A DNA stretch of 64,000 bases, taken from assembly GCA_965662775.1 (NCBI GenBank), contig CBFIIW010000003.1, forward strand, positions 16,491 through 80,490. The letters are read 5' to 3'. This document shows positions 3,351 through 55,475 of this stretch, in pieces (the stretch's first letter is position 1; the number at the start of each line of letters is the position of its first letter). This stretch comes from Alphaproteobacteria bacterium. Its GTDB lineage: Bacteria; Pseudomonadota; Alphaproteobacteria; UBA7985. Made by a program: the position numbers and the translations under genes. The notes below the pieces were generated by a model. That model saw nothing but the letters and a program-made list of their open reading frames with translations, was not told where the DNA came from and searched no databases.

Positions 3351-4022
3351 ATGACGAATTACCTGCATCAGGCAGACCTGCCCGACGACGTCGACCTCGG
3401 GCCTGTTTTTGCGATAGATACCGAGACCATGGGGCTGAACCTGACCCGTGATCGCCTTTGCCTTGTTCAGGTCAGCGACGGCAACGGCGATGCACACCTG
3501 GTGCAGATGCCTCAACGCTCCATGCCCGGCACAGCGCCCTTCGCCGGCGCTGTGGCCACAACAGCAACAGCCTCTGCGCCACTGGCCCCGAACCTCTGTC
3601 GGCAGCTAGGAGATCCGAACCGGCTCAAGCTCATGCACTTTGCCCGCTTTGATATCGCAAGCGTGTACGCCTATCTGGGCGTATTGATGACGAACGTGTA
3701 CTGCACCAAGCTCGCAAGCCGGATGATCCGTACCACAACTGACCGGCACGGGCTGCGTGATCTGTGCAAGGAGATGCTCGGTGTGGAAATCTCCAAGTTC
3801 AACCAAACCAGCGACTGGGGCGCGGTGACCCTAAGCCCGGAACAGCTGGACTATGCGGCCTCGGACGTGCTGCACCTGCACGCGCTTCGGAGCAAGCTCG
3901 ATGGGCTGCTCGAACGGGAGGGCCGATTGGCACTGGCGCAAAGGTGCTTCGATTTCCTGCCGCATCGTGCCCAGCTTGACCTGCTTGGCTGGGACGAGCG
4001 AGACATCTTTGCCCACAGTTGA
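3351..4022 (+). CDS. rnd: 3'-5' exonuclease, RNase D-like (DEDDy family)
   Basis: The FAIDTETMGL (Exo I) motif and the YAASDVLHL (Exo III, DEDDy) motif are present. A GAGG RBS sits before the ATG at 3351. Position upstream of lptA-lptB-rpoN matches alphaproteobacterial synteny. It contains a ~30-aa Ala/Thr-rich insertion. Confidence 0.8.
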   Translation: MTNYLHQADLPDDVDLGPVFAIDTETMGLNLTRDRLCLVQVSDGNGDAHLVQMPQRSMPGTAPFAGAVATTATASAPLAPNLCRQLGDPNRLKLMHFARFDIASVYAYLGVLMTNVYCTKLASRMIRTTTDRHGLRDLCKEMLGVEISKFNQTSDWGAVTLSPEQLDYAASDVLHLHALRSKLDGLLEREGRLALAQRCFDFLPHRAQLDLLGWDERDIFAHS

Positions 4023-4104
4023 GACCCGAGCGCCGCTCGCACAGACCGCACCGCGATCCCGGCGATCCCGGCGAGGGCGGCTTGTCGCTGCTGCCCGAAT
4101 TGCG

Positions 4105-4374
4105 TTGGTTCTTTTGTGTTGTGGACTGGGAGCGGCCGCTCTGTTGACCCGAGCGACCTCAACCGGGGGTGATCGACTGTCGATCGTTGGTCCACCGGAT
4201 GGTTTGACTGCGCCAGCGTCGGCTGAAGGCGCATCTTCACTCCAGCTCAACGGTCCGGTTGAGTTCGTCGGCGCTCATGGCCTGTCGCTGTCAGCGCAGG
4301 ACGGCGCGACGCTTGACCCGGATGGGGCATCTTTCACGCTTCTCGGCCGTTCGCAGGCCTCCACCAGTCGTTAA
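4105..4374 (+). CDS. small membrane-anchored protein, possible short or degenerate LptC
   Basis: It is the only ORF in the 390-bp slot between rnd and lptA, where lptC normally sits. A TTG start gives LVLLCCGLGAAALL (a TM helix) followed by a beta-rich segment. At ~90 aa it is far shorter than canonical LptC, which is ~190 aa. Confidence 0.25.
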   Translation: MVLLCCGLGAAALLTRATSTGGDRLSIVGPPDGLTAPASAEGASSLQLNGPVEFVGAHGLSLSAQDGATLDPDGASFTLLGRSQASTSR

Positions 4375-4410
4375 TGGTCTAGACGTTCAGTCTGGGCTAA
4401 AGTTGAAAGC

Positions 4411-5295
4411 ATGAAACAACGCCTGTCTTCCCTGCTTATCGGCGTGTCGGCTGCTATTCGTGCACGATGGAAGGCCGCGTCTGCGGTTCCTTCAGCGGCT
4501 GTTACGGCTTCTCGGCTCGTTCTGGTTACGGTCCTCGCATTCGCTTGTTTTGACCCGGCACCGGTGCCGGCGGTGGCCCAATCGCGCGCAACCGGCAGCG
4601 ATTTTGACCTTGCCGCGCAGAACGGCATTTCCTTCGACGCCAACACAGGTGTGTATCGCGCCACCGGAGAGGTGCAGTTGGTCGTTGGCGACTGGGTGGT
4701 TCTCGCCGATGGCATTGAAGCCAGCCTCCGGGAAAATGAACTCTCGGTCAGTGGTCATGGCCAGACCGGACCAGACCTCTCTAAGATTACAGCCTCGGGC
4801 GGGGTCTTTGTCCGCAATCCGCAGGTCACCGCCCGATGTGAGACACTAACGCTCGACCCCGACCGTGAAACTGTCAACCTGACCGGTCCTGGCGTGGTTC
4901 TGCAGCTCGAAGGCAGCCGACTGGTGACCGATGGCGTTTTACGGTTCGATGCACGTGCGGGTCGCTTCAGCCTTGATGGCGCCTTCATTCTGCAGTGGGA
5001 CGGCCTGCGGCTGTCGGCAGAGGCAGCTTCGGGGGCACTTGATGAAACCCGATTAGCCTTGCTGGAGGCCCGTGGTGGGGCTGCGCTGGAGGGAACTGGC
5101 TGGCGCGCGGCGGCGCAAACAGTGCGCTTCGATCAGGCGGCGGCGCAGGTTCGGCTCAATGGCGCGGCTGTGGTGCAGCAGGGCGATTTGATGCTTTCAG
5201 GAACCGGGCTGGTCTACGACCTCGATACCGGTAGCCTCATGCTTGATGGCGGGGCGGGTGGGCGCATCTCCGGTACGTTGAGCGGCCAGCCATGA
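4411..5295 (+). CDS. lptA: LPS export periplasmic protein LptA (OstA-like N-terminal domain)
   Basis: There is a signal peptide, then an OstA_N-like beta-jellyroll (GISFDANTGVYRATGEVQLVVGDWVVLADGIEA). It is immediately upstream of, and overlaps, lptB. Confidence 0.8.
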   Translation: MKQRLSSLLIGVSAAIRARWKAASAVPSAAVTASRLVLVTVLAFACFDPAPVPAVAQSRATGSDFDLAAQNGISFDANTGVYRATGEVQLVVGDWVVLADGIEASLRENELSVSGHGQTGPDLSKITASGGVFVRNPQVTARCETLTLDPDRETVNLTGPGVVLQLEGSRLVTDGVLRFDARAGRFSLDGAFILQWDGLRLSAEAASGALDETRLALLEARGGAALEGTGWRAAAQTVRFDQAAAQVRLNGAAVVQQGDLMLSGTGLVYDLDTGSLMLDGGAGGRISGTLSGQP

Positions 5296-6041
5296 CGACC
5301 GCAGCATCATCTGATACTGGGCGCGAAGGCCTGTTGGTTGACGGGCTATGTGTCACCCGTGCTGGCCGGACGGTCGTACACAACCTGTCACTGCAGGTTG
5401 CGCCAGGACAACTGGTCGGCCTGCTTGGCCCTAATGGCGCGGGGAAGAGCACGGCGTTTCAGGCAATCATCGGTCTTGTCCAGAGCCAGAGCGGGGGCAT
5501 CAGCCTGAATGGTCAATCGCTGGAGCGGCTCCCAATGTTTCGCCGTGCTCGTGCTGGGCTGGGTTATATGCCGCAGGACGCCACCGTATTTACCGGCCTC
5601 ACGGTTCGACAGAACATCGCGGCCGTGATGGAAATCGGATTGCCGCGCCGCGAACGCCCGGAACACTTCGAGCATCTGGTTGAGGAATTTGCCCTCGGCG
5701 ACCTCCTCGACCAACGTGCAGAAACCCTGTCTGGTGGCCAGCGCCGCCGTCTGGAACTCGCGCGGACGTTGGCAACCCGTCCAGAAATTGTGATGCTCGA
5801 TGAACCGTTTGCAGGGGTTGATCCCATTGCCATTGACGTGCTGCAGACGGCGATCAAAACCATTCAGTCGATGGGCTATGGCGTCCTGATCACAGACCAC
5901 AACGTGCGTGAAACGTTGGCGCTGGTGGAGCATGTGGTGCTGATTGATAAAGGTGAAGTGCTGATTGAGGGCCCGTCGGCTGCAATTGAAGCAGATGAAG
6001 CGGCTAAAAAACACTATTTAGGAGAGAATTTTTCTCTTTAA
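5292..6041 (+). CDS. lptB: LPS export ABC transporter ATP-binding protein LptB
   Basis: Walker A GPNGAGKST, signature LSGGQRRRLELAR, Walker B IVMLDEPFAGVD. Sits in the lptA-lptB-rpoN context. Confidence 0.9.
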   Translation: MTTAASSDTGREGLLVDGLCVTRAGRTVVHNLSLQVAPGQLVGLLGPNGAGKSTAFQAIIGLVQSQSGGISLNGQSLERLPMFRRARAGLGYMPQDATVFTGLTVRQNIAAVMEIGLPRRERPEHFEHLVEEFALGDLLDQRAETLSGGQRRRLELARTLATRPEIVMLDEPFAGVDPIAIDVLQTAIKTIQSMGYGVLITDHNVRETLALVEHVVLIDKGEVLIEGPSAAIEADEAAKKHYLGENFSL

Positions 6042-33818: not shown

Positions 33819-34099
33819 TGCCCTTTCGCTGCAAAACGAGCCTACTGCGGCTCGTGTTACGCTGAAAGGCACCCCCGGTTGCCTCCCCCTTTAAGCGACT
33901 GCCAGCCAGCAATCTATGTCATTGGTTTGCGGTCCGGTTAATCGCCTGAACGGCTGTCATTTACTCGCCCAGATTGTGTGCAATTTATTTCATAATCCAT
34001 CTACTTCGCCGCGCTTTGGTATAGTAGTGAATGGTCGGTTGGTGTGTTCTCCAGTCTCCAGCCAGTTTCGCCCAGCCTTTCCGCTCAGGAGGTCTAGAC

Positions 34100-35968
34100 T
34101 TGTTACGGTTCACTCGACACAGCCTGCGCCCATCAGCGTGCTTAACGCTGCTCACCGCACTTTTTTTGTTTGGGCTTATGACGGCACAAAGTTCGGGCAA
34201 GGCGGCTGCTCAATCGCCCGGAGCGCTGGTTTCTGCTGAATTGCGCCACGCCTTTGGCCTGCTTGGTCCCCTGCCACTGAACGCTGCGGCTGTTTCTGAG
34301 GATGCCTTGGGGGCTGTGATGGCCGATGCGAGCCTGTTCGGCGTACCGCTGGGTGATCTGTCGCTCGACGCGGTGCCACTGGGCGAGGGCCTCTGGGCTG
34401 TGCAGAGCCGCGAATGGACCGCCGCGGGTGGTGGCAACCCCGGCGTTGGTCTCTGGCAGTTGCAGGGCACGTGGGACCAGAGTTTGAGTGGTTATCAGCA
34501 GCTCGACTATCGCGCACAGGATTGGCGGCTTTTGACCTCCGCCGGCCACAGCATTGCTATCGCAGACTTGAGCATGATCGCCTCCCCTGACGGTTACCGG
34601 CTGCAAGCGCGCGACGTGGAGATCAGTGGTGGCAGCCCTGCTGAGGCTGAAGGTGAGCCCGATACGACCTTCCGTTACGTTATTGGCGACGTTCTCTACG
34701 AAAGCCAATGGCAAGGTGGCGCGCCAGGTGCGGCTTACGCAAGCCTTGGCCGGGCTTTCGATTTTCGTTTCCTCGGCGCCAGCCAGGATGGTGGCGAAGC
34801 GCTGATCGGGGCGACGCTCGCGCACTTGCAGTCGCTCTACCTGCCCGCGACGTCTTCCGCGACCACGCTCGAAATTCGCGATATGAGCCTGTCACTGGGG
34901 TCCCTCGGACTGAATCTGCAAGTCGATCACTTGTCCTTGCCCGCGACCTCAAGCGGCGAGGGACAAAAGACCCAAGCATTGCAGCTGGTGATGGAGGGGC
35001 TGGATATCCAGCGACGGGAAGACTACGCGCGTCTGGGGCAGGCGCAATTGGGCATTGATGTCAGCGCCGCAGATGTCGCCGGCTTCACGGCAGCCCTCGC
35101 CGCGTTGTTCACCGACGCCGAGCCGGGCAGCAGCTGGCAGGTGCTGGCCGATATCTTCCTGTTCTTCGACAACTTGCAGGTTGATGGCATGGCCCGCGAG
35201 ATGGTTTTCGCACTCCCTGACCGGATGTTTTCGGTCAGCATGAATGATGTCGTAGGGCGTTTACAGCTCAGCGATATGCGGATGGACGGTGCAACGATGA
35301 CCGTGCAAGTGCGTTCCGATGGTATTACCCTCGACGCGATTGAAACACCGGATGGTGTCCAGCCTGACCCGATTGTGATCCCGGCCGTGATCCCCGTCCT
35401 GGGGGGCCGGCTGGTTCGCTTTGACCCGCTTTCACAGAGCCTAGTTCCGTCTCAACTCACTACCACTGTTGAGATCACGGCCCTGCCGATGGCGAACCTG
35501 CGGGATACCCTTGGCAGCCTACCCAGAGCGGGGTCATTCGGGGACCCTGGTACTCTGTTTCGCTCGCTTGCGGCTGGTGCATTCGGCATGATTACCCCCT
35601 TTTTGATCCAGCCGCCCATAATTACGATCAAGGATACCGCGGCATCAGCAGCCGATTACACCATGCGCCTCGAAGGCTCGCACCAGGTCATGCCGATCCC
35701 GCCTCTGTTCGGGTTTGGGACTTTCCTTGTCGAAATTTCTGGGCTTGATGCCGTGCAGCAGCGGTCGTCGCAGACGGCCGCCGCCGCGGCTGCGATCAAC
35801 GGTGAAGACGTTCAGGGGATGCAGGATTACAGTGGGCAGATCGCAGACTGGGCCAGCCGTCTCGGCGCGTACGGGGACGTGACAGGCAACGACCAGCGCC
35901 GCTACGCGTTGGAGCTGAGCCAGCTGGGTGAAGTTGTGCTCAACGGCACTGTTATCGCGCCACAATAA
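34100..35968 (+). CDS. large secreted hypothetical protein (~620 aa), possible DUF2125-like
   Basis: An AGGAGG RBS sits 8 nt before TTG at 34100. Signal peptide LLTALFLFGLMTAQSSGKAAAQ. Gly/Ala/Leu-rich beta-rich sequence with no recognisable catalytic motif. The C-terminus (LELSQLGEVVLNGTVIAP) resembles that of the downstream paralog. Confidence 0.6.
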   Translation: MLRFTRHSLRPSACLTLLTALFLFGLMTAQSSGKAAAQSPGALVSAELRHAFGLLGPLPLNAAAVSEDALGAVMADASLFGVPLGDLSLDAVPLGEGLWAVQSREWTAAGGGNPGVGLWQLQGTWDQSLSGYQQLDYRAQDWRLLTSAGHSIAIADLSMIASPDGYRLQARDVEISGGSPAEAEGEPDTTFRYVIGDVLYESQWQGGAPGAAYASLGRAFDFRFLGASQDGGEALIGATLAHLQSLYLPATSSATTLEIRDMSLSLGSLGLNLQVDHLSLPATSSGEGQKTQALQLVMEGLDIQRREDYARLGQAQLGIDVSAADVAGFTAALAALFTDAEPGSSWQVLADIFLFFDNLQVDGMAREMVFALPDRMFSVSMNDVVGRLQLSDMRMDGATMTVQVRSDGITLDAIETPDGVQPDPIVIPAVIPVLGGRLVRFDPLSQSLVPSQLTTTVEITALPMANLRDTLGSLPRAGSFGDPGTLFRSLAAGAFGMITPFLIQPPIITIKDTAASAADYTMRLEGSHQVMPIPPLFGFGTFLVEISGLDAVQQRSSQTAAAAAAINGEDVQGMQDYSGQIADWASRLGAYGDVTGNDQRRYALELSQLGEVVLNGTVIAPQ

Positions 35969-36091
35969 CTTTATTGGAGATAAGACTAGATTTTTTAATT
36001 AAAAAAAGACATCCTGATTTCAGTTCATACAATCTGAAATAGTATTATGTTTGCAGGGAGTTCAGGGGCTCGAAATCGCGAAGAGGCAAGT

Positions 36092-38500
36092 ATGTTTAAG
36101 GTCCGTCTAAAGCTGTTGTTTTTAAAACCAACGCAGCAGCGACGGTTATTGCCGGAAAGTGACTGTCTAGGCCGCTGGTTGAGCTTGCTATCATTTGTCG
36201 TGCTGGCGTTCTTGCCCCTGCGAGCTGCCGGCGAAACGGCCGACACGCGGACAGTCGGTGCCGAAGTTGGGCCAAGCGCTGCCCTCAGCTCGACCGAGGT
36301 TGCGGCTTTACTTGAGCAGGTACAGCAGCATCCGATTTCTCTGTTCCTTTCACTGCCCGTCACTGCGGATACCTTTATCGTTAAGGCAGCTGATGACGAG
36401 GGGGCCGATCAGGCGGAGGCTTTTGAGATCACCGCGCCGAACGTAAAACTGGGTGAGCGGGCATTGGGTGACCTGGTTTTCAACGCCGTTGCCCACGATA
36501 ACGGTCTATTGGTGAGCATGGATCTTTTGCCTCTGCTCAGCGGATATTTCGAAGGAATAGACAGCACGATCGACGCCAATGCGCTCAATCTGAAACTCGT
36601 CATCGACCAAGGCTCGACGCATTTCTCGCAATTGTCCCTCGAGATGCATGGCTTTCGCCTAACGCATGCCGACGGCACGCCGGAACGCAGCGTCCTCAGT
36701 TTAGATCACCTCAACTTTGCTATCGATGATGCTGACGGGCAGGTACTTATTGAGACATCGTTTGACGTGCAGGGACTGTCACTCATCATCGATGGTAAAC
36801 CCGTTATTGAACTGGATAGCCTTCAAGGCTCGTTCCAGTCTCCCCGAGCGCTGGGGAAATTCCTGCACGAAGAGCTCAATCATGGCGTGAAGCTTGGCTT
36901 GGCAAGTCTTGCTGGTCTGGCCGATCCAGTGGACATTATTCCAGACCTGCTGGAGCGCTGGGCCCCGATGTTTGAAATGGAACCAGTGGCCCAACAAAGC
37001 ACTCTGAGCATGGGTCCGCTGTCAATTTATACAAACGGATCGAAGGTCAAATGGCACCTTGAGGGCCTGAGCGCGCGGGGTGACTTCGACCCAGTGGCAA
37101 GCGAAGCCCGAACCGAAATCCAGCTCGCCAAACTGCGAACTGATCTCATCGACGTCGAAGCCGACAAAAACGTTACGCTTCTATACTGGGACGGTGCCGA
37201 AGTCACCTCGCTGCTCCGGCACAAGCCCGGAAAAGACAACCGCTTTATCGCTGACATCTTGCGCGCGACCGCTGCAGATCTGCGCGTTGTCTATGCTGAA
37301 GCTGAGGATGAGGCCGGACGCGTTCTTGGGCTGATCGCGGTGATCGGGCATCATGGCAAAGATCTGATTGATGGCGTCATCAGCCGTCAGGATCGGAACT
37401 GGCAGGAAACGACAATAAGCAGCGTAAATGCTGACTTTTCGTCTGTGGCTATGCCTCTGCGAGCCGGACTAGAGCAAATAACGATCACTTCGGATCTCGA
37501 TTTCAGTACCGGTACGGACGTACAATCGATATCTCTTTCCCTGCAAGGCGTTGAGATCGATGGGCCGGAAGCGGGGTGGTCCGTGACACTCGGTGAACAT
37601 CGATACGAAACTCAAGTTACGGGCTTGTTGACCGCATTTCGGGGTCGGCTGAATTCGCTTGCCAGCGGTGAGATCACGATGGGAGATTTTGTCCGCGTTG
37701 GGCTAGCCGTATACCTGCCAGCGTTTTCGATTTCCTTCGATGATTTGGCGGTGCAGAGTAAGGTGCCTGAACGTGATGCTAACTTTGATTTGCGGCTTGA
37801 TCGGGTGGAACTGGCCTTCGATGTGAACAACCCGCTGACCGACGATGCGCGACTAGGGCTACGCTTTGAGCAGTCTGGGGTAAACTTGGCATTGGAAGGA
37901 GAATTTAATATCGATTCTTCTATACTAGATCTAGCGCTGGGTAGGGACGGCGAACCAGGATTGCTACCCAACGACATTCACCTCGAAGTCGCACTGGACG
38001 CTATTTCCATGGGCCAGCTTCTGGCCGTTGCCGACACCATCACGTTGCCGCTCGATGAAGCGGAGGACATATCGGAGGTGTTTGAAGAGCGATTGGGACT
38101 GTATGGGGTTGCTCTGCTTTCGCCGTTCCTAAGTGCGCCGCCGAACTTGGTGGTCTCCCCGTCCTACATACGTGGCGGGCTGGTCGAAGCGGAAGCAAAA
38201 GGCAGTTTTGCTATTTCGCCGTTGAGCCCACCGACCTTCGCGGAAGGGCAAACCGAAATCCGCGTTACCGGCCTCGGCGCGTTAACGCAACTGGCACAAG
38301 AACAGTCCGCTGCCCTCAATGCGATAGGCACAGATCAGGCGCAGGCGTCGATCCAATTGTTGTCGCAGGTTATTGGCCTTGCCATGGTCGCCAGCAGCCT
38401 TGGTGTGCCTGAAGCCGATGGCGATGTGCTGAGCTTTGTGCTGGAGGCGTCATCAGGTAGCCCGCTGACCATAAACGGGTTACCGCTCGACATGAATTGA
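36092..38500 (+). CDS. large secreted hypothetical protein (~800 aa), paralog-like partner of the upstream gene
   Basis: The start is probably MFKVRLKLLF (36092; the ORF-track M at 36047 is also possible). It has an N-terminal hydrophobic signal or anchor (WLSLLSFVVLAFLPLRAAGE). No known domain recognised. The C-terminal LTINGLPLDMN resembles the upstream protein. Confidence 0.6.
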   Translation: MFKVRLKLLFLKPTQQRRLLPESDCLGRWLSLLSFVVLAFLPLRAAGETADTRTVGAEVGPSAALSSTEVAALLEQVQQHPISLFLSLPVTADTFIVKAADDEGADQAEAFEITAPNVKLGERALGDLVFNAVAHDNGLLVSMDLLPLLSGYFEGIDSTIDANALNLKLVIDQGSTHFSQLSLEMHGFRLTHADGTPERSVLSLDHLNFAIDDADGQVLIETSFDVQGLSLIIDGKPVIELDSLQGSFQSPRALGKFLHEELNHGVKLGLASLAGLADPVDIIPDLLERWAPMFEMEPVAQQSTLSMGPLSIYTNGSKVKWHLEGLSARGDFDPVASEARTEIQLAKLRTDLIDVEADKNVTLLYWDGAEVTSLLRHKPGKDNRFIADILRATAADLRVVYAEAEDEAGRVLGLIAVIGHHGKDLIDGVISRQDRNWQETTISSVNADFSSVAMPLRAGLEQITITSDLDFSTGTDVQSISLSLQGVEIDGPEAGWSVTLGEHRYETQVTGLLTAFRGRLNSLASGEITMGDFVRVGLAVYLPAFSISFDDLAVQSKVPERDANFDLRLDRVELAFDVNNPLTDDARLGLRFEQSGVNLALEGEFNIDSSILDLALGRDGEPGLLPNDIHLEVALDAISMGQLLAVADTITLPLDEAEDISEVFEERLGLYGVALLSPFLSAPPNLVVSPSYIRGGLVEAEAKGSFAISPLSPPTFAEGQTEIRVTGLGALTQLAQEQSAALNAIGTDQAQASIQLLSQVIGLAMVASSLGVPEADGDVLSFVLEASSGSPLTINGLPLDMN

Positions 38501-40465: not shown

Positions 40466-40669
40466 TCAGTTGCCGATCCCACCGGTGAAAAATAGCAGCA
40501 GCAGCGAGATCACGGTTCCGGCCTGACACACTGTCCGGGCCCGCATCAGCAGATTACCGTACTTGTCGTTGAAGATGCCGCCACGGCCCATTGCAAAGGC
40601 CCCGACCAGCATGGAGACCAGTGTTCCGATCAGGAAGACACCGGTTAAAATCAAAAATATTGTGTTCAT
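40466..40669 (-). CDS. small two-TM membrane protein (67 aa)
   Basis: Two hydrophobic helices (IFLILTGVFLIGTLVSMLVGAF and AGTVISLLLLFFTGGI). Translationally coupled to the PduO-type gene. Confidence 0.5.
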   Translation of the reverse strand: MNTIFLILTGVFLIGTLVSMLVGAFAMGRGGIFNDKYGNLLMRARTVCQAGTVISLLLLFFTGGIGN

Positions 40670-40810
40670 GACAACTCAAGTGGTGTGTGCAGTCGTAAAG
40701 TCAGCCGCTGGCAGAAAAGAAAGTCGAAAGCTGCGGCAATCGACCCCGTAACCGAGACCTACTTCCCGGTTTTTGCGACAGGGAGAAGGGTTTTTGTGCT
40801 TCCCGTCGGG

Positions 40811-41464
40811 TTACTGACCGACCGGAATTAGAGTGAAACTGTCGTAGTGGTCGACCGTGATCCATATTGCACTATCGTCGGTCCGGGCGCGGTCATAAAC
40901 GATGCGCGCTGCGCCGCGAAAGCCTTGGACATAATCAAGATCTGCGACCGCGTAGCTGTTTGCGGGCCGAGCGGGGAGTAAGCCTTCGCGGTTGCCGAAG
41001 ATATCCCCCCCCACTGCGCCGTCGGGGTCGATATCATCGATTGTTTGCCCCGATGATTTCCAGCCTAAATCTCGGGCTTGTGCCTTGGTCATGTAACAGT
41101 CAGGCAATCGCCCTTCACGCTGCAGAAAGGTGGTGACTTGCGCGAAGGCGTAGGGGAAATCTAGCCCTTGGGCCAGTCCGAAGGCAGTGCGAGCCTCGAC
41201 CACCGGGCCGCCTATTTCAAGATCGTGACCGCAGACCTCGGCTGCGGCTGCGGCCTCCTCGAAGCGGGTGAGATCAGTCTCCGTCAAGGCGAGCGTTGCT
41301 TGACGACCGGTATCCTGTGGCAGAAAGGCTGGCAGCAGAACAAACAGCACAAAGCCAAAAACCGCCGCCAGCAGCGCAGCGCCACCGGCTAAGCTGACCA
41401 GTCGATGCGGCAAGGGTCGGTTCAACATCTGGCGGTTCTCCTCTGGCACAATCCGTGGTTTCAT
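40811..41464 (-). CDS. barnase-family (microbial RNase N1/T1/Sa superfamily) ribonuclease with an N-terminal membrane anchor or signal peptide
   Basis: The C-terminal ~110 aa align to Bacillus barnase: AQVTTFLQREGRLPDCYMTKAQARDLGW vs AQVINTFDGVADYLQTYHKLPDNYITKSEAQALGW, and GGDIFGNREGLLP...YVQGFRGAARIVYDRA...ITVDHYDSFTLI vs GGDIFSNREGKLP...YTSGFRNSDRILYSSD...KTTDHYQTFTKI. All the catalytic residues (Lys27, Glu73, Arg83, Arg87, His102) are conserved. The N-terminus has a hydrophobic helix LAGGAALLAAVFGFVLFVLLPAF. Confidence 0.8.
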   Translation of the reverse strand: MKPRIVPEENRQMLNRPLPHRLVSLAGGAALLAAVFGFVLFVLLPAFLPQDTGRQATLALTETDLTRFEEAAAAAEVCGHDLEIGGPVVEARTAFGLAQGLDFPYAFAQVTTFLQREGRLPDCYMTKAQARDLGWKSSGQTIDDIDPDGAVGGDIFGNREGLLPARPANSYAVADLDYVQGFRGAARIVYDRARTDDSAIWITVDHYDSFTLIPVGQ

Positions 41465-43829: not shown

Positions 43830-44618
43830 CTAGTAGGAAGAGGTATCGATCTTTGCCGCCCCGCCTTTGATCTCGGCAACAATGGCAGTCGCGGCATTGC
43901 GCAGGATCCCGGCGTCGGACTGCACAGTCACAAATTGGAAGCCCATTTCGATCATCCGCACGGCATATGCTGCTGTGCCGTTGTGCAAGCCGACGGGCTT
44001 ACCAGCCGCGCGGCAGGCGGCAATGATCTTCTCGAACGCCTTTACCACCACCTCGTTCTCCGTATCCAGCCGGGGGCGTTGCCCAAGCGCATTGGCAAGA
44101 TCGTTAGGCCCAACATAGATGGCGTCTATCCCCTCGGTGCCAACGATTTCCTCTACCCGATCCAGACCTTCCGCGGTTTCCACCATCGCCATGCGGATAA
44201 TTTCATCGTTGGCCTTGTCGGTATAATCGCTGCCGCCGTAGATCGACGCGCGAATGGGGCCAAAGGACCGGGTGCCCAGTGGTGGGTAGGACGCGAAATG
44301 CACGAACTGACGAGCGTCCTCTCTGTTGTTGATCATGGGGCAGATTACGCCGTAAGCGCCGGCGTCCAGCACCTTCATGATTATCCCGGCATCAAGCCAT
44401 GGTACGCGCACAAACGGTACGACGTCGGTGGTTGAGATCGCCTGGAACTGAGAGACCGCAATCTGATAGTCCATCAGTCCGTGCTGCATATCGACCGTGA
44501 TGCTGTCCCAGCCGCAATGCGCCATTACCTCGGCGGTAAAGGCTGCGGGCGTGGCGAGCCAGCCGTTTGCGACCACCCCGCCGGATTTCCAGATTTCCCG
44601 AATTTTGTTCGGCCGCAT
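43830..44618 (-). CDS. HpcH/HpaI aldolase family protein (2-keto-3-deoxy-sugar-acid aldolase-like)
   Basis: HpcH_HpaI pattern (VRVPWLDAGIIMKVLDAGAYGVICPMI, MVETAEGL, YVGPNDLA). The start is at MRPNKIRE. Confidence 0.8.
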   Translation of the reverse strand: MRPNKIREIWKSGGVVANGWLATPAAFTAEVMAHCGWDSITVDMQHGLMDYQIAVSQFQAISTTDVVPFVRVPWLDAGIIMKVLDAGAYGVICPMINNREDARQFVHFASYPPLGTRSFGPIRASIYGGSDYTDKANDEIIRMAMVETAEGLDRVEEIVGTEGIDAIYVGPNDLANALGQRPRLDTENEVVVKAFEKIIAACRAAGKPVGLHNGTAAYAVRMIEMGFQFVTVQSDAGILRNAATAIVAEIKGGAAKIDTSSY

Positions 44619-44777
44619 GCGCTTGTCCTCCTGCACCTGTTCGTGCGGGAGTTTAGCCCGCCGGCGTCGCTTGTCGATCATCCTCAGCAGTCCGGACTTG
44701 CTTTTTTTGACCTAGGATTGGTAGGAGCCGACCCCTACAAAGGCTGGAACAGGAATATCAGGCGACAACAGGCAAGC

Positions 44778-45548
44778 ATGACGGTGAAAACCGCTTATCG
44801 CACTGTGTTCATTTCGGACACGCATCTGGGCATGACAGGGGTTCGCAGCGAGACGCTGCTGGCCTTTCTGCATGGCTTGTCATGTGAGACGCTATATCTG
44901 GTCGGCGATATCATCGATGGCTGGGCGCTCCAGCGACACTGGGTCTGGACAGATACTGACGATGCGGTGCTGGATGCGATCTTTGCGCAGGTTAAGGCAG
45001 GCACGCGCGTGGTCTATATCCCCGGTAATCACGATGACATGGTGCGCGACATACTATCTGTGGAGCGCTTCGGGGGGGTCGAGCTACGACTCAGTGATAT
45101 CCTGATCCTTGCCGATGGTCGTCGATTTTATGTCACCCATGGCGATCAGTTCGACGTGGTAACAAACAATATGACCTGGTTGTCGAAGTTCGGGCACCTG
45201 ATCTACGAGTACTACACTGCTGGCATGCGGCAGGTTGCGCGCCTGCCTGGGTTAGGATGGGCGAACAATCTCCCTGCTCATGCCAAGAGCCTTTCCAAGC
45301 GGATCTTCCAGCCACAGGGTGCCTTTGAGCGCGGTTTGCAGCGGGAAGCCGGAGAGCGCAACGCCGTTGGCGCGATTGCAGGGCACATTCACCGCCCTGC
45401 GCTAAACACAAAAGACGGCTTTACCTATGCCAACTGCGGCGACTGGGTCGAGTCCTGTACGGCGCTGGTAGAAGACCCCGCAGGGCACTTAAGCCTGCTT
45501 TACTGGTCTGACGAGGGCTTAATTGAAACAAGGGAGCATGTCAGCTGA
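44778..45548 (+). CDS. LpxH-family calcineurin-like metallophosphoesterase (UDP-2,3-diacylglucosamine diphosphatase-like, LpxH2-type)
   Basis: Metallophos motifs FISDTHLG, YLVGDIIDGW, GNHD, GHIHRP, which match the LpxH signature arrangement. The stop overlaps the start of the downstream glycosyltransferase. Confidence 0.75.
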   Translation: MTVKTAYRTVFISDTHLGMTGVRSETLLAFLHGLSCETLYLVGDIIDGWALQRHWVWTDTDDAVLDAIFAQVKAGTRVVYIPGNHDDMVRDILSVERFGGVELRLSDILILADGRRFYVTHGDQFDVVTNNMTWLSKFGHLIYEYYTAGMRQVARLPGLGWANNLPAHAKSLSKRIFQPQGAFERGLQREAGERNAVGAIAGHIHRPALNTKDGFTYANCGDWVESCTALVEDPAGHLSLLYWSDEGLIETREHVS

Positions 45549-46591
45549 TGCATATTCTTCTGGTAAGCGATGCTTGGCATCCGCAGATCAACGGTGTGGT
45601 ACGGACGCTCGACACCACCCGGGGGATCGTCGAGCAAAAGGGTCATACCTTCAGCCGGATCACCCCTGATCAATTCCAGATCAACATGCCGATGCCGATG
45701 TACAAGGAAATCGGACTGGCGTTGTTCTGGCCCGGTGAGGTGAGCCGTCGGATCAAGGCCATTATCCAGGAGAAGGGCGCCATCGACGCCATCCACGTTG
45801 CGACCGAAGGCCCGCTGGGCATGGCGGCGCGCTCGTTCTGTCAGCGCAATAAGATCCCCTTCACCACGTCTTTTCACACCAAGCTTGCCGAGTACATCAA
45901 CGAACGCACGGGGCTTCCCGCGCGCTGGCTTTGGCGTTGGCTGGAGTGGTTTCATCGCCCGGCTCAACGAGTTCTTGTCACCAATCAGGGAATGGCGGAC
46001 GAGTTGGCTGAATTTGGCATCAAGCACACACACCTTTGGCCGCGTGGTGTTGATCTGGAATTATTCCATCCGTCAAAGAAGCCCTCTCAGCACGTGCAAG
46101 GCCTGCAGCGTCCAGTCTTTGCATACGTCGGCCGGGTTGCAGTCGAGAAAAATATCGAATCCTTTCTGAAGCTGGATTTGCCGGGGACGAAGATGATCGT
46201 TGGCTCTGGTCCTTCCTATGGTTCACTGAAGGCTAAATATACCGACGCTGTCTTTACTGGCCCGCTGCACGGGGACGTGCTGGCCGCGGCCTATGCGGAC
46301 GCTGACGTGTTTGTCTTCCCCTCGAAGACTGATACTTTCGGGCTCGTACTGCTCGAAGCCTGCGCGGCCGGAACGCCGGTCGCTGCCTTCCCTGTGACGG
46401 GGCCGAAAGACGTCATCACCGATCCGAATGTCGGTACGTTGAGCGAAGATTTACAGGCGGCCTGTCTCACGTCGCTTGAGTTGTCCTCAACAGCGGCCCG
46501 GACCTATGCAGAACGCTTTTCGTGGGATGCTGCGACGCAGACTTTCCTCGATGCGCTAGAGCGGACTTCGGTGACCGGCCACGAGGACTGA
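45548..46591 (+). CDS. glycosyltransferase family 4 (GT-B fold)
   Basis: N-terminal MHILLVSDAWHPQINGV and C-terminal GT1/GT4 EX7E-like region (FVFPSKTDTFGLVLLEACAAGTPV). Confidence 0.85.
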   Translation: MHILLVSDAWHPQINGVVRTLDTTRGIVEQKGHTFSRITPDQFQINMPMPMYKEIGLALFWPGEVSRRIKAIIQEKGAIDAIHVATEGPLGMAARSFCQRNKIPFTTSFHTKLAEYINERTGLPARWLWRWLEWFHRPAQRVLVTNQGMADELAEFGIKHTHLWPRGVDLELFHPSKKPSQHVQGLQRPVFAYVGRVAVEKNIESFLKLDLPGTKMIVGSGPSYGSLKAKYTDAVFTGPLHGDVLAAAYADADVFVFPSKTDTFGLVLLEACAAGTPVAAFPVTGPKDVITDPNVGTLSEDLQAACLTSLELSSTAARTYAERFSWDAATQTFLDALERTSVTGHED

Positions 46592-46705
46592 TGGTTACAT
46601 TACCGCTGCCGGTCTGACTGACGGGCGGTGGATCGTCAGCCCGTCAGTCCTTCAGTTTATTCGGCTTTCGGTTGAGCGGTTGGGTTTCATCCATTTTCGG
46701 ATGCG

Positions 46706-52826: not shown

Positions 52827-55475
52827 TTAGAGCGAGGTGTGGTCGTAGAAGATGATTGACCCGTTCCAGGTCTGGGTCATCTCATCTTCTCCGATGAAGT
52901 AGGTCGACGTACCGGCCTCGGAGATACCGACGAGGAGCTCGTCGGCGCCGATGTTGCCATCTTCACGGGATGATTCCTCAATGGAGCCAGGAATTACCAG
53001 CAGTTCGGTTGCCCCTGGCACCGGTTCAGTGGTGTACAGCTGCGTCAGAACTTGTGGGTTGGTCGGATCAACGTCGAAGAACCGGATGATCGGTGTCTGG
53101 TCGAGCACGTCCAAAACAGCGAGTTCAAGATCGTCGTCGCCGTCAAAGTTACCCGCTGCAATCTGGCTGGCTTTGATGTCAGTTGTATGGAGCCCATCGT
53201 TAGAGATCGAACCCGCTTCGGGTGTGTCCATGTGCGTGTGGAAGGCTTTGTTGTAGTAAATGCCTTCGTCCGTTGCCGTGAACACCACGTTGTTGATGAC
53301 AGCGACATCGTTGTGTTTGATGCCGCTCCCTGCGCTGACCACGCCTTTGCTGGGGTCTGAAATGGACGCCATGCCGATTCCGGTGCCGTCGCTGGTCCCA
53401 TAGGTGCCGATTGAGTATTCGACATCATTGAGAACCATGCTTTCTACTTCATCGAAGTGCCAGTTGCCCTGCAACTGCGTACCCTCGATCTCGTACTGAT
53501 TGTCGATGAACGCAACGGTGTAGAGCGCGTCTTCTGAGGCAACGTTGTCTGTGCCGCCGCCAATCACCATGATCTTTTTCATGTTCGTGACTGAGGTTTC
53601 CTGGCCCGTCGATGCCTTGTTGAAGTGCCCGATGATGACATCACGGACGGAAGCATGCTCGGAGTCCTTATCGGCGGTTTGGAAACTGAAGACGCCCGTG
53701 CTTCCAGCTTCCCAGATCTGAACGACCGAATCCTCGCCACTGGTTCCACCGCGGCCGGCGACGGCAACATCAAGGAATCCGTCACCGTCGATATCATCCA
53801 TGTCGATCGCGATCACTTCATGGATGTGGTACTTTTCATCGATCACGGTTGAGTTGTTGACCGAGTAGTTTTTGGTTCCAGAAAAACCGCCTTCACCATT
53901 GATATTGTGCACCGAGAACATCGACGGATCTTCACTGTGGATTGACGCAATCAGGTGATCGCCACTGCCACTACGCGCGTATTCGGCTTCGTCCATAAAC
54001 GGCAGCCAGTCTGTACTGTCCGCAGCCCCGGACTGGGTGCTATTCTGGCCGTTGTAGCTCAGGCGTGTGACATCGGCCTCACGCACGTACTGCAGCGGCG
54101 TATCATCGTCTGTTGAGTTCGCAATGCTGAACCCGAAGGTCCGAAATTCTGTATGTTCAGAGCCGTCTGAGACCTCGATCACGACCGTTGCGGTGTTGTG
54201 GTCGAACAGTGTGCCGTCTGCATCATTGCCGGGCTGACTGTAGTCCAAGCGTTCCGTCAGGATCAGCTGGTTTTCGTCATTGATGGCAAAGATCTTGGTA
54301 TCGGTCGAACCCAGCTTCTGGCTGTCGATACGATATTGAAGCTCATCGCCTTCAGGGTCGTCGGCCGATAGCGTGCCGACGATGGTATCCTGCTCGACCA
54401 GACTGTAGCTGCCGGTGCTGTTAAAGAACTCTGAGAACTTGAGTGCCGACGGTCCTTCGTTCTCAGGGTCTTTGTTGGTGACTTCGAATTCAGGATCGAT
54501 TCCGTCTTCAATCTCTTCCTCATCTTCCGGCTCGTTCGCGGCTGCGACCTGATCGTTATCGCCGGAGACATCGTCCGAATCTCCCTCGCTGACGCTGCTG
54601 TCGCCCGCGCCATCTGAATTGCCGTCGCCTTCTCCGTCCTCGCCGGTTTCATCATCGTGGTTGCTGCGGTCGAAGGGGTTGGGAAGATTGCCAGTGAGTG
54701 CAGCGGCCCCAAGTCCGAGTGCACCGACGCCGGCGACGCCAGCTGCGAGAGGGCCCCAAGCTGCCAGACCACCGCCCGAAACACTGGACAGGATCGACGT
54801 GGTCTCGGTCACCATGCCGAGGTCACCAGCGATGGTCGAGGCCAGCCAAACGTCTCCGCCGTTGAAGGCATAATCACCCGCACCGGCAGTCATCATCTCG
54901 CCGTCTTTCAAGGTCAGCGCGAGACTACCGCCATTGAGCTTTTCCGTGCCTAGCACGTCTGACTGGACGTTGCGGAAGTTCTTGGTGGTGACGGTGGTTT
55001 CAGCATTGTTAAGCTGCGCCGTCTCGTTCGGATTCAGCAGTGTCACCTGCGTTGTCCGGACTTCTGACGTTGGCACGAATACGGGGGAAGTCGAGGCCGT
55101 CTCTACGCCACCAAGCTCAACACCGTTATAGCTGTTCCAGCCTTGAACTTGCTGATCCGTCGGGTACACACTGAGCACGCCCGGTGCAGCGCTGCCACGG
55201 GAAGACGCCAGGCCGTCGGTCAAACCATCGATGGTTGAGGTTTCTTCCCCAAAATTTGGGTGCTGATGCGGGACTAATTCACCCGCGTCCGTCATGGTTC
55301 CACCAAAAAACGGACCTGCTGCGGTGCCATCGGCCGATTTAGCCACGAAGACAGAATGGGCCATCGCCTCTCCAGCCAGCAGCGCACTGCCGGCAACACC
55401 AAAGAAGAGACCCTTGCGTGCAAAGGAAGGACGGGCAGAGCCAATAGCTCTCTTGGTCTGAAAAATCGTATTCAT
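52827..55475 (-). CDS. large secreted surface protein with a cadherin-like repeat and FG-GAP/VCBS-type repeats
   Basis: Signal peptide. Acidic Asp/Glu/Gly/Ser linker (DDETGEDGEGDGNSDGAGDSSVSEGDSDD...). Cadherin-like repeat (YSLVEQDTIVGTLSADDPEGDELQYRI...FAINDENQLILTERLDYSQPG...TATVVIEVSDGS). FG-GAP-like Ca-binding loops (DMDDIDGDGFLDVAVAG, GNFDGDDDLELAVLD). Confidence 0.7.
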   Translation of the reverse strand: MNTIFQTKRAIGSARPSFARKGLFFGVAGSALLAGEAMAHSVFVAKSADGTAAGPFFGGTMTDAGELVPHQHPNFGEETSTIDGLTDGLASSRGSAAPGVLSVYPTDQQVQGWNSYNGVELGGVETASTSPVFVPTSEVRTTQVTLLNPNETAQLNNAETTVTTKNFRNVQSDVLGTEKLNGGSLALTLKDGEMMTAGAGDYAFNGGDVWLASTIAGDLGMVTETTSILSSVSGGGLAAWGPLAAGVAGVGALGLGAAALTGNLPNPFDRSNHDDETGEDGEGDGNSDGAGDSSVSEGDSDDVSGDNDQVAAANEPEDEEEIEDGIDPEFEVTNKDPENEGPSALKFSEFFNSTGSYSLVEQDTIVGTLSADDPEGDELQYRIDSQKLGSTDTKIFAINDENQLILTERLDYSQPGNDADGTLFDHNTATVVIEVSDGSEHTEFRTFGFSIANSTDDDTPLQYVREADVTRLSYNGQNSTQSGAADSTDWLPFMDEAEYARSGSGDHLIASIHSEDPSMFSVHNINGEGGFSGTKNYSVNNSTVIDEKYHIHEVIAIDMDDIDGDGFLDVAVAGRGGTSGEDSVVQIWEAGSTGVFSFQTADKDSEHASVRDVIIGHFNKASTGQETSVTNMKKIMVIGGGTDNVASEDALYTVAFIDNQYEIEGTQLQGNWHFDEVESMVLNDVEYSIGTYGTSDGTGIGMASISDPSKGVVSAGSGIKHNDVAVINNVVFTATDEGIYYNKAFHTHMDTPEAGSISNDGLHTTDIKASQIAAGNFDGDDDLELAVLDVLDQTPIIRFFDVDPTNPQVLTQLYTTEPVPGATELLVIPGSIEESSREDGNIGADELLVGISEAGTSTYFIGEDEMTQTWNGSIIFYDHTSL

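Follow-up and report, generated by a model that had tools for sequence, protein, structure and literature searches.

Two genes are located in tandem on the forward strand of the window, that is, the whole 64-kb stretch of DNA that was analysed. The first gene (ORF A, plcP) occupies positions 44778-45548, begins with ATG and encodes 256 aa, with its TGA stop at 45546-45548, while the second (ORF B, agt) extends over 45548-46591, begins with the ATG at 45548-45550 and encodes 347 aa. The genes meet in the sequence TGATG (45546-45550, + strand), in which the base A45548 is common to the plcP stop and the agt start, so that the stop/start overlap described in the earlier note is real and amounts to 1 nt. 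The 3' end of plcP contains a Shine-Dalgarno-like AAGGGAG for agt (45530-45536, + strand), separated by 11 nt from the agt start codon. Both starts are backed by relatives, as 256-aa homologues of PlcP use the same Met and homologues of Agt share the Met that opens “M.IL.V.DAW”. In all eight same-lineage loci that were fetched (protein identity 76-87%), the 1-nt overlap was retained, the genes being positioned there at 4001-4771 and 4771-5814 (84-854 and 854-1897 in locus L082). Since the same 1-nt overlap recurs in the lineage, overlaps are present in 35 of 49 distant plcP-agt loci among the matches listed, and PA3219 and PA3218 of P. aeruginosa overlap by 4 nt, the overlap of plcP and agt is no chance juxtaposition. 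It can also be observed that the genes flanking the pair are unrelated housekeeping genes, and that the pair is kept as a unit in the lineage.

ORF A contains the Pfam domain Metallophos (PF00149). Against the LpxH equivalogs of NCBIfam, NF003743 and TIGR01854, it scored 35.3 and 35.0 bits, compared with cut-offs of 134 and 190.35, respectively, and the block-3 Arg of LpxH (GNRD) is absent, GNHD being found instead. The “LpxH signature” reported for this protein therefore stands as far as likeness to LpxH is concerned, but falls short of the LpxH family thresholds. A true LpxH, considered as a candidate for ORF A, was ruled out by these thresholds and by the His-for-Arg motif. Six of six PlcP motifs are present, namely D14-T-H16, G43-D44-I-I-D47, G83-N84-H85-D86 (DNA 45024-45035), H121-G122-D123, G202-H203-I204-H205, and G221-D222-W223, all of which are invariant across 61 homologues; the proteins of S. 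meliloti and P. aeruginosa have them in identical form. The criteria for PlcP given in Fig S5 of the mBio 2022 study are DXH, GDXX-, GNHD, HGD, GHIH, and GDW; the caption of that figure prints the second motif as “GDXXH”, and every sequence examined here has GDxxD. As far as that figure describes it, the His of the third motif is kept in PlcP, not in LpxH, and is needed for phospholipase activity. This PlcP-specific His is present in ORF A as H85. The same His/Arg difference split LpxH2 from LpxH in the study of Opiyo et al. (2010), in which E. coli lpxH was not complemented by P. aeruginosa lpxH2. The earlier view of the phosphoesterase as a paralogue of LpxH, of the “LpxH2” type and not a lipid A enzyme, agrees well with GNHD and with 35 bits against 134 and 190. 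The accompanying statement that LpxH2 proteins have no proven function is outdated, as the LpxH2s of Opiyo et al. (281 aa and 270 aa) match SMc00171/PlcP and PA3219/PlcP in length and context.

Along almost the full length, ORF A is 40% identical to the S. meliloti PlcP orthologue (239 residues, E 9e-58) and 37% identical to P. aeruginosa PA3219 (E 4e-50). These two proteins served as references here instead of MED193 PlcP, to which the literature criterion for PlcP (BLASTP E<1e-40) refers. The S. meliloti reference (281 aa, beside the sinI, sinR, and malic-enzyme genes) was recognized as SMc00171 by neighbourhood, length, and single-copy status, not by locus tag, and the P. aeruginosa reference (270 aa) is located upstream of PA3218 and cyaB (PA3217); both sequences were taken from PLSDB records resembling mislabelled chromosomal DNA. 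Their mutual identity is 47%, in line with the published value of 46%. S. meliloti PlcP (SMc00171; Zavaleta-Pastor et al. 2010, PNAS, as cited in later studies) is an intracellular LpxH-like phospholipase C feeding diacylglycerol into phosphorus-free lipid synthesis, and its DXH, GDxxD, GNHD, HGD, GHIH, and GDW motifs are identical to those of ORF A. Unlike in the window, plcP of S. meliloti is a solitary gene with no coupled agt, and the gene after it encodes an MFS transporter. The diacylglycerol of S. meliloti is mainly converted to the betaine lipid DGTS. By analogy with these homologues, ORF A is predicted to be PlcP, a cytoplasmic LpxH-like (LpxH2-clade) metallophosphoesterase acting as an Mn-dependent phospholipase C that makes diacylglycerol.

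The AlphaFold model of ORF A (pLDDT 83.7) displays a metallophosphoesterase core with a helical insertion at residues ~122-193, which forms the cap. The top structural matches of the model were the LpxH-lipid X complexes 5B4B, 5K8K, and 8QJZ, with which ORF A shares the fold, consisting of a calcineurin-like core and an inserted helical lipid-binding cap, as well as five metal-binding blocks. Identity to LpxH is ~20-22%, however, block 3 contains Arg in LpxH and His in ORF A, and LpxH differs from PlcP in both substrate and pathway. The nearest solved relatives of ORF A were LpxH structures (E 3e-7 at best), which carry GNRD, including that of H. influenzae, and no solved structure of a closer relative was found. 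The cap is the low-confidence part of the model. Within it, residues 128-192 share 21-24% identity with the PlcPs of S. meliloti and P. aeruginosa, compared with 42% between those two proteins in the same region, and the core regions of ORF A are 43-47% identical to both. Judged from the alignment, the PlcP lipid-binding cap is unusually divergent in the lineage of the window and, given this divergence and the low model confidence, the substrate preference of ORF A could differ from that of characterised PlcPs.

ORF B has the architecture of a GT4, GT-B glycosyltransferase, composed of Glyco_transf_4 (PF13439, residues 47-171) and Glycos_transf_1 (PF00534/PF13692, residues 182-301), all above the Pfam gathering scores. 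Its signatures comprise H110 (45875-45877), R166, GRVAVEKN at residues 195-202 (46130-46153), FPSKTDTFG at residues 257-265 (46316-46342) with the catalytic D262 (46331-46333), and W326. The stretches GRVAVEKN and FPSKTDTFG are invariant or nearly so among 12 aligned clade members, the published UDP-sugar motifs of Agt/GTcp being GRVAXEKN and FPSXTDTFG (Wei 2021, PMC8231724). Moreover, H110, D262, R166, and W326 are invariant in the clade alignment and equivalent to His104, Asp256, Arg163, and Trp320 of GTcp, mutation of which abolishes activity (Wei 2021, PMC8231724). In the Agt/GTcp clade, Asp takes the place of the usual GT4 Glu to form a His-Asp dyad, and the Arg and Trp contact diacylglycerol. 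Compared by published residues, ORF B has equivalents of all GTcp residues found essential by mutagenesis (Gly16, His104, Arg163, Arg190, Lys195, Asp256, Thr257, Phe258, Gly259, Glu264, and Trp320; Wei 2021, PMC8231724), and differs from GTcp by an insertion of 5-6 residues at ~75-80 and a numbering shifted by +6. Members of the clade are expected to share ~40-58% identity with one another and <25% with other GT4s. ORF B shares 45% identity with P. aeruginosa Agt1/PA3218 (E 7e-93), 54-55% with Agt-like proteins of Citromicrobium bathyomarinum, and 49-50% with those of Thalassospira, including T. lucentensis; Wei 2021 (PMC8231724) lists glycosyltransferases of T. lucentensis and C. bathyomarinum among the members of the clade. 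The glycosyltransferases of that study and the cluster members found here share species, not accession numbers. Against other characterised GT4 families in NCBIfam, ORF B scored far below the cut-offs, and solved GT4 structures gave partial matches only, with E 5e-10 or weaker. On these motifs, ORF B is an Agt, a retaining GT4 diacylglycerol glycosyltransferase of the Agt/GTcp clade. The product range varies among characterised members: in P. aeruginosa, Agt1 makes MGDG only and Agt2 GADG only, whereas both lipids are products of GTcp and of A. tumefaciens Agt. The sugar specificity of ORF B cannot be read from its sequence; alpha-glucosyl- and/or glucuronosyl-diacylglycerol is predicted as the product by analogy.

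The pairing was followed across the family by a scan of contigs, from which 80 diverse loci were obtained among the matches listed, a sample separate from the closest relatives and the reference organisms. The gene-pair conservation that the earlier note had asked about is evident, as agt is directly downstream of plcP on the same strand in 49 of 78 informative loci among the matches listed, in diverse Proteobacteria and Planctomycetota. In the 35 of these 49 loci mentioned above, the stop and start overlap by at least 1 nt, the usual lengths being 4 nt and 1 nt, which, together with the eight lineage loci, upholds the proposal of a two-step, translationally coupled unit. Of 10 sampled loci lacking agt, five had a gene for an MGDG-synthase-type GT28 as the next gene, one a gene for a BtaA-like DUF3419 protein, and one a gene for another GT4. 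In the window, ORF A is coupled to a diacylglycerol-consuming head-group transferase, with agt overlapping the plcP stop codon. The plcP-agt operon was described between 2010 and 2022 in Sinorhizobium, Agrobacterium, SAR11, Phaeobacter, Pseudomonas, Methylosinus, and Burkholderia, and the pair is an ordinary copy of this known operon, not a new system. Where a distinct system had been suspected, the arrangement is instead the known “type 2” plcP-agt arrangement, found in >25% of the marine isolates examined (Sebastian 2016, PMC4796936) and also for PlcP/GTcp of SAR11 HTCC7211 and Agt of A. tumefaciens (atu2297; Semeniuk 2014). The PA3219-PA3218 operon of P. aeruginosa (Jones et al. 2021, ISME J, PMC8528852), whose proteins have been studied by genetics or in recombinant E. 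coli, has the same gene order as the window, and all catalytic motifs are common to both pairs. Its genes overlap by 4 nt, however, instead of 1 nt; a clear upstream Pho-box array at 11-bp spacing is present, which the window lacks; the cap region of PA3219 is strongly different from that of the window PlcP; and Agt1 makes only MGDG, which need not hold for the Agt of the window.

As described above, the anatomy of the genes, the family membership indicated by motifs and homology, and the conservation of the coupled pair argue that the two genes very probably form a plcP-agt operon of two translationally coupled cistrons that serves membrane lipid renovation, with substrates, products, and Mn dependence expected to follow those of the homologues. 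PlcP would be a cytoplasmic, membrane-peripheral binuclear metallophosphoesterase, with the LpxH fold and a helical lipid-binding cap, that cuts the glycerol-phosphate bond of PG, PE, and PC to yield diacylglycerol and a phospho-head group, the phosphorus of which could be recovered by the cell. Agt would use a UDP-sugar to attach glucose and/or glucuronic acid, or possibly galactose, to the diacylglycerol, and the resulting alpha-monoglucosyl- and/or glucuronosyl-diacylglycerol would take the place of phospholipids in the membrane. The non-phosphorus glycolipid that had been put forward as an end product agrees with the products of characterised homologues. The public name of MAH88097.1, “UDP-2,3-diacylglucosamine hydrolase”, and the LpxH structures as closest solved folds of ORF A would instead fit a genuine lipid A LpxH, as in GenBank, with ORF B as an LPS-core or other envelope glycosyltransferase, but this is extremely unlikely. 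The score of 35 bits, where 134 and 190 are required, GNHD in place of GNRD, and the failure of the P. aeruginosa LpxH2 to complement E. coli lpxH (Opiyo et al. 2010) all argue against it, as do the diacylglycerol-contact residues and Agt motifs of ORF B, and no lpx genes were found near the pair among the window ORFs scanned. The LpxH name itself carries no weight because NCBI uses it for PA3219 and the PlcP orthologue of S. meliloti as well. Homology to LpxH, which is a pyrophosphatase, the tight coupling of both genes, and a divergent cap that might accommodate another lipid substrate are also consistent with the earlier idea of a pyrophosphatase with a nucleotide-sugar or a lipid-linked sugar diphosphate as its substrate, and of a GT4 that would glycosylate the product of this reaction, giving either a modified precursor of lipid A or an undescribed glycolipid. 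We consider this very improbable, since the characterised clade members are phospholipases C that convert glycerophospholipids to diacylglycerol, according to genetics in S. meliloti, Phaeobacter MED193, P. aeruginosa, Methylosinus, and Burkholderia and enzyme work in HTCC7211, and the family partners among the loci sampled are all diacylglycerol consumers (Agt, the MGDG-synthase-type GT28, and the BtaA-like DUF3419 protein).

Upstream of plcP, a divergent intergenic and promoter region occupies 44619-44777, as delimited by alignment of the HpcH-aldolase gene on the - strand, the probable true start of which is located at 44618; HpcH of relatives has 262 aa, and an invariant CAT and GGAGGA align at 44616-44618. 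Six upstream regions of relatives (protein identity 76-87%) were aligned, and three conserved blocks emerged on the + strand. The block TAGC-N14-TGTCGAT (44654-44678), a candidate regulator site, is invariant in the six regions while its flanks vary, and a second exact copy was not found in the 64-kb window. The block C.TGC.TTTTT...CCTA (44697-44716), which holds TTGACC, is a candidate promoter or operator, and the block GC.G...C.TA.AA (44727-44743) lies closest to plcP. A scan of 44619-44777 gave no sigma-70 consensus promoter on the + strand, and the promoter/terminator scan gave no terminator. Characterised plcP-agt systems are, as a rule, induced by phosphate starvation via PhoB. In the consensus scan, no canonical Pho box was found upstream of plcP, the top match to CTGTCATN4CTGTCAT being 8/14, equal to background, and the upstream regions of lineage relatives reached only 8-9/14. 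The positive controls, PA3219 and S. meliloti plcP, scored 10/14 in the 11-bp register, and scores of at least 11/14 were obtained in 17 of 85 family upstream regions versus 5 of 425 controls. Phosphate and lipid A genes (pst, pho, lpx, bta, ugd) were absent from the ORFs of the window that were scanned. It is uncertain whether phosphate starvation through PhoB would be the inducing signal here.

The absence of a Pho box here, although it is enriched in the family at large, the lineage-conserved upstream blocks, and a cap 21-24% identical to characterised PlcPs, compared with 42% between them, may point to a PlcP-Agt pair with altered wiring, in which a lineage-specific cap shifts phospholipid preference or membrane targeting, the operon is constitutive or under a regulator other than PhoB, and the glycolipids are a standing membrane component instead of a response to starvation. 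This reading is rather unlikely, as consensus-based Pho-box prediction failed in some taxa, for example SAR11 (Sebastian 2016, PMC4796936), true Pho sites reach just 10/14 in the crude consensus scan, nothing in the catalytic core or in the Agt residues departs from the canonical pattern, and the cap divergence may be neutral. It is similarly doubtful that, in this uncultured marine lineage (entries named Kiloniella sp. and related MAGs), PhoB control has been lost, the blocks within 44654-44743 govern the operon, and the cap is altered, which would make the glycolipid swap constitutive or responsive to another signal. Apart from the modest question of regulation without a recognisable Pho box, the plcP-agt operon opens no new mechanistic question.

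The practical value of the identification as plcP-agt lies in annotation. In GenBank, these proteins are named “UDP-2,3-diacylglucosamine hydrolase” and “alpha-mannosyltransferase”, of which the LpxH name is wrong, and neither Pfam nor NCBIfam contains a model for PlcP or Agt. Recognition of plcP-agt marks the marine lineage as one able to swap phospholipids for glycolipids, which affects the phosphorus demand of the cell in low-phosphate oceans. Furthermore, the same pathway in characterised bacteria also alters antibiotic resistance and grazing by predators.

The gene pair studied here adds a new member, so far uncharacterised and wrongly annotated, to the well-known plcP-agt operons. As the earlier note had proposed, it consists of two overlapping ORFs, the first of them an LpxH2-type paralogue as judged by the motifs discussed below. 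ORF A (44778-45548, 256 aa) and ORF B (45548-46591, 347 aa) lie on the plus strand, with one base common to the stop TGA of the former (45546-45548) and the start ATG of the latter (45548-45550). A Shine-Dalgarno-like AAGGGAG (45530-45536, plus strand) is located within the 3' end of ORF A. Both start codons are consistent with those of homologues; a longer GTG-started ORF (44481-45548) overlaps the divergent aldolase gene and has no support from any homologue. In Pfam, ORF A falls among the calcineurin-like metallophosphoesterases, whereas ORF B belongs with the GT4/GT1-type GT-B glycosyltransferases. A divergently transcribed HpcH/HpaI aldolase gene is situated 5' of the pair, with a convergent DUF4170 gene and then an isocitrate lyase gene on the 3' side. 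No lipid A- or phosphate-related genes were found among the window ORFs scanned, and the pair is a self-contained unit. For the aldolase ORF (window 44618-44681, minus strand), the listed start is the ATG at 44681 (283 aa); the true start is probably 44618, because the genes of relatives encode 262 aa and their invariant start and GGAGGA align there.

The best named NCBIfam matches of ORF A are the LpxH equivalogs, and the top structural matches of its AlphaFold model are LpxH-lipid X complexes. An assignment as LpxH itself is nevertheless made very unlikely by a score of 35 bits, where the models require 134 and 190, and by block 3, which reads GNHD in ORF A versus GNRD in the aligned LpxH chains; solved LpxH chains matched with E values of only 3e-7 to 3e-3. 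This His/Arg residue discriminates PlcP/LpxH2 from LpxH in two independent papers. The "LpxH2" clade keeps GNH(D/E), with Arg in LpxH, and E. coli lpxH was not rescued by P. aeruginosa lpxH2 (Opiyo et al. 2010), while the motifs given for PlcP in the 2022 Methylosinus paper are DXH, GDXX-, GNHD, HGD, GHIH, and GDW. All six are present in ORF A (D14/H16, G43-D44..D47, G83-N84-H85-D86, H121-G122-D123, G202-H203-I204-H205, and G221-D222-W223) and invariant across 61 homologues. Judged by sequence, ORF A is LpxH-like but very probably not LpxH. Its model (mean pLDDT 83.7) displays a phosphoesterase sandwich with a helical insertion at residues 122-193; this fold and the LpxH-lipid X matches point to the architecture of a lipid-handling enzyme. 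A signal peptide is absent, since the catalytic DXH begins at residue 14.

Links to characterised PlcP proteins were obtained by tblastn against PLSDB, in which two records matched, evidently chromosomal DNA filed as plasmids. In one, CP090106.1 of S. meliloti (labelled pSymB, 3.72 Mb), plcP occurs together with sinI, sinR, and a malic-enzyme gene that has a frameshift; the other, CP075839.1 of P. aeruginosa ("pPALO11"), includes the region PA3217-PA3219. Both look chromosomal. The S. meliloti homologue adjoins sinI, sinR, and the malic-enzyme gene. We infer orthology to SMc00171 from these sinI (SMc00168) and sinR (SMc00170) neighbours, its single copy and its 281 aa, the same length as "Sm LpxH2" of Opiyo et al.; SMc00171 is the protein reported as PlcP by Zavaleta-Pastor et al. 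2010. The P. aeruginosa homologue (270 aa, equal to "Pa LpxH2") is followed by a glycosyltransferase gene with a 4-nt overlap and then by cyaB. Because cyaB is PA3217, the genes preceding it correspond to PA3219 (PlcP) and PA3218 (Agt1), the pair described by Jones et al. 2021 (PMC8528852). Identity between the S. meliloti and P. aeruginosa PlcP references is 47% (published value 46%; Jones et al. 2021, PMC8528852). Over almost its full length, ORF A is 40% identical to the S. meliloti orthologue (E 9e-58) and 37% to PA3219 (E 4e-50).

ORF B was compared with the Agt/GTcp clade, for which Wei et al. 2021 (PMC8231724) gave as signatures GRVAXEKN and FPSXTDTFG, catalysis by a His-Asp dyad in which Asp replaces the usual GT4 Glu, diacylglycerol contacts at Arg163 and Trp320, and identities of 46-58% within the clade but <25% to other GT4s. 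ORF B carries GRVAVEKN (195-202), FPSKTDTFG (257-265), H110, D262, R166, and W326; across 11 aligned homologues the four residues are invariant and the two motifs invariant or nearly so. Its full-length identity to P. aeruginosa Agt1 is 45% (E 7e-93), and it shares 54-55% with proteins of Citromicrobium bathyomarinum and 49-50% with those of Thalassospira, taxa whose GTs were named as clade members (Wei et al. 2021, PMC8231724). Scores for the remaining named GT4 families in NCBIfam are far under threshold. ORF B is thus best predicted as an Agt.

With one genome per species, at least 80 PlcP loci (39-46% identity) were scanned from Alpha-, Beta-, and Gammaproteobacteria and Planctomycetota. 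Among the matches listed, a full-length Agt homologue lies directly 3' on the same strand in 49 of 78 informative loci, 35 of the 49 having a stop/start overlap, mostly of 4 nt or 1 nt; the conservation check suggested earlier thus came out in favour of the pair. Loci that lack Agt often have a different enzyme that uses diacylglycerol encoded next; ten sampled loci without Agt yielded five MGDG-synthase-type GT28s, one other GT4, one polyphosphate kinase, and one DUF3419 protein, which we take to be BtaA-like. The closest relatives, which share 76-87% identity and are without exception marine metagenome-assembled genomes, possess the same pair, 1-nt overlap and flanking genes. In some of them a DUF4174 gene (5804-6361 in L085; 5804-6307 in L087 and L088) has an 11-nt overlap with the agt stop and is possibly an extra operon member there; window 46592-46705 has no DUF4174 counterpart, only 114 bp separating agt from the convergent DUF4170 gene. 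The neighbourhoods reproduce the "six types" of Sebastian et al. 2016 (PMC4796936), in which plcP-agt is type 2, present in >25% of marine isolates. The pair is hence a known arrangement, not the distinct system envisaged earlier. Nor does a pyrophosphatase acting on a nucleotide-sugar fit, as the homologous characterised enzymes cleave glycerophospholipids to diacylglycerol.

By analogy with those systems, PlcP would convert glycerophospholipids to diacylglycerol and a phospho-head group, and Agt would then add a sugar to this diacylglycerol, with UDP-glucose, UDP-glucuronate, or UDP-galactose as the donor. The products would be surrogate lipids, phosphorus-free (glucosyl) or anionic (glucuronosyl), in keeping with the non-phosphorus glycolipid that had been suggested. 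Translational coupling would presumably match the production of diacylglycerol to its consumption. The sugar used by this Agt cannot be predicted, because P. aeruginosa Agt1 and Agt2 are specific (Jones et al. 2021, PMC8528852) and GTcp and the Agrobacterium enzyme promiscuous (PMC8231724).

In the catalytic core, ORF A shows 43-47% identity to the PlcP references, compared with 49-55% between the references themselves. In the cap (residues 128-192, window ~45159-45353), identity is 21-24%, versus 42% between the references. This cap is three residues shorter than in other PlcPs, with QVARLPGLGWANNLPAHAKSLSK in place of their "RRR..YWSLSAYLK". Relatives in the lineage of the window share it, and AlphaFold modelled it with low confidence; the alignments suggest a lineage-specific variant of the lipid-binding cap. 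Pho boxes are present in characterised plcP operons; their prediction is unreliable in some taxa (Sebastian et al. 2016, PMC4796936). A crude consensus scan recovered the known sites of the two controls, four 7-mers at an 11-bp period 5' of PA3219 and 10/14 5' of S. meliloti plcP, and gave scores of at least 11/14 in 17 of 85 family upstream regions versus 5 of 425 control windows. By contrast, the same scan recognised no Pho box in the 159-bp intergenic region of the window (best 8/14, equal to background), and lineage relatives scored only 8-9/14. Three non-coding blocks upstream of plcP (44654-44678, 44697-44716, and 44727-44743) are kept in relatives (76-87% protein identity) while surrounding bases vary, matching neither the Pho box nor the sigma-70 consensus. 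Given the missing Pho box, these blocks and the divergent cap, there is a small chance that the lineage module is regulated differently or of different specificity.

In the public record, the window proteins appear as "UDP-2,3-diacylglucosamine hydrolase" (MAH88097.1) and "alpha-mannosyltransferase" (MAH88098.1), both in a MAG that bears the label Kiloniella sp. The LpxH name is also attached to PA3219 PlcP (within 3968-5832 in L090, the P. aeruginosa locus) and the S. meliloti orthologue (3956-4801 in L089), and neither Pfam nor NCBIfam holds a PlcP or Agt model; the mis-annotation of plcP-agt proteins is systematic. Elsewhere in the window, three long ORFs lack a Pfam hit at E<=1e-5: 36047-38497 (plus, 817 aa), 34031-35965 (plus, 645 aa), and 52830-55475 (minus, 882 aa). 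The gene at 40811-41464 (minus) encodes a ribonuclease of the barnase family whose N terminus includes a hydrophobic segment. Beside it in the window (40530-40810) there is no barstar-sized ORF, only a 67-aa hydrophobic ORF (40466-40669); in relatives, a barstar gene directly adjoins the barnase-family gene.
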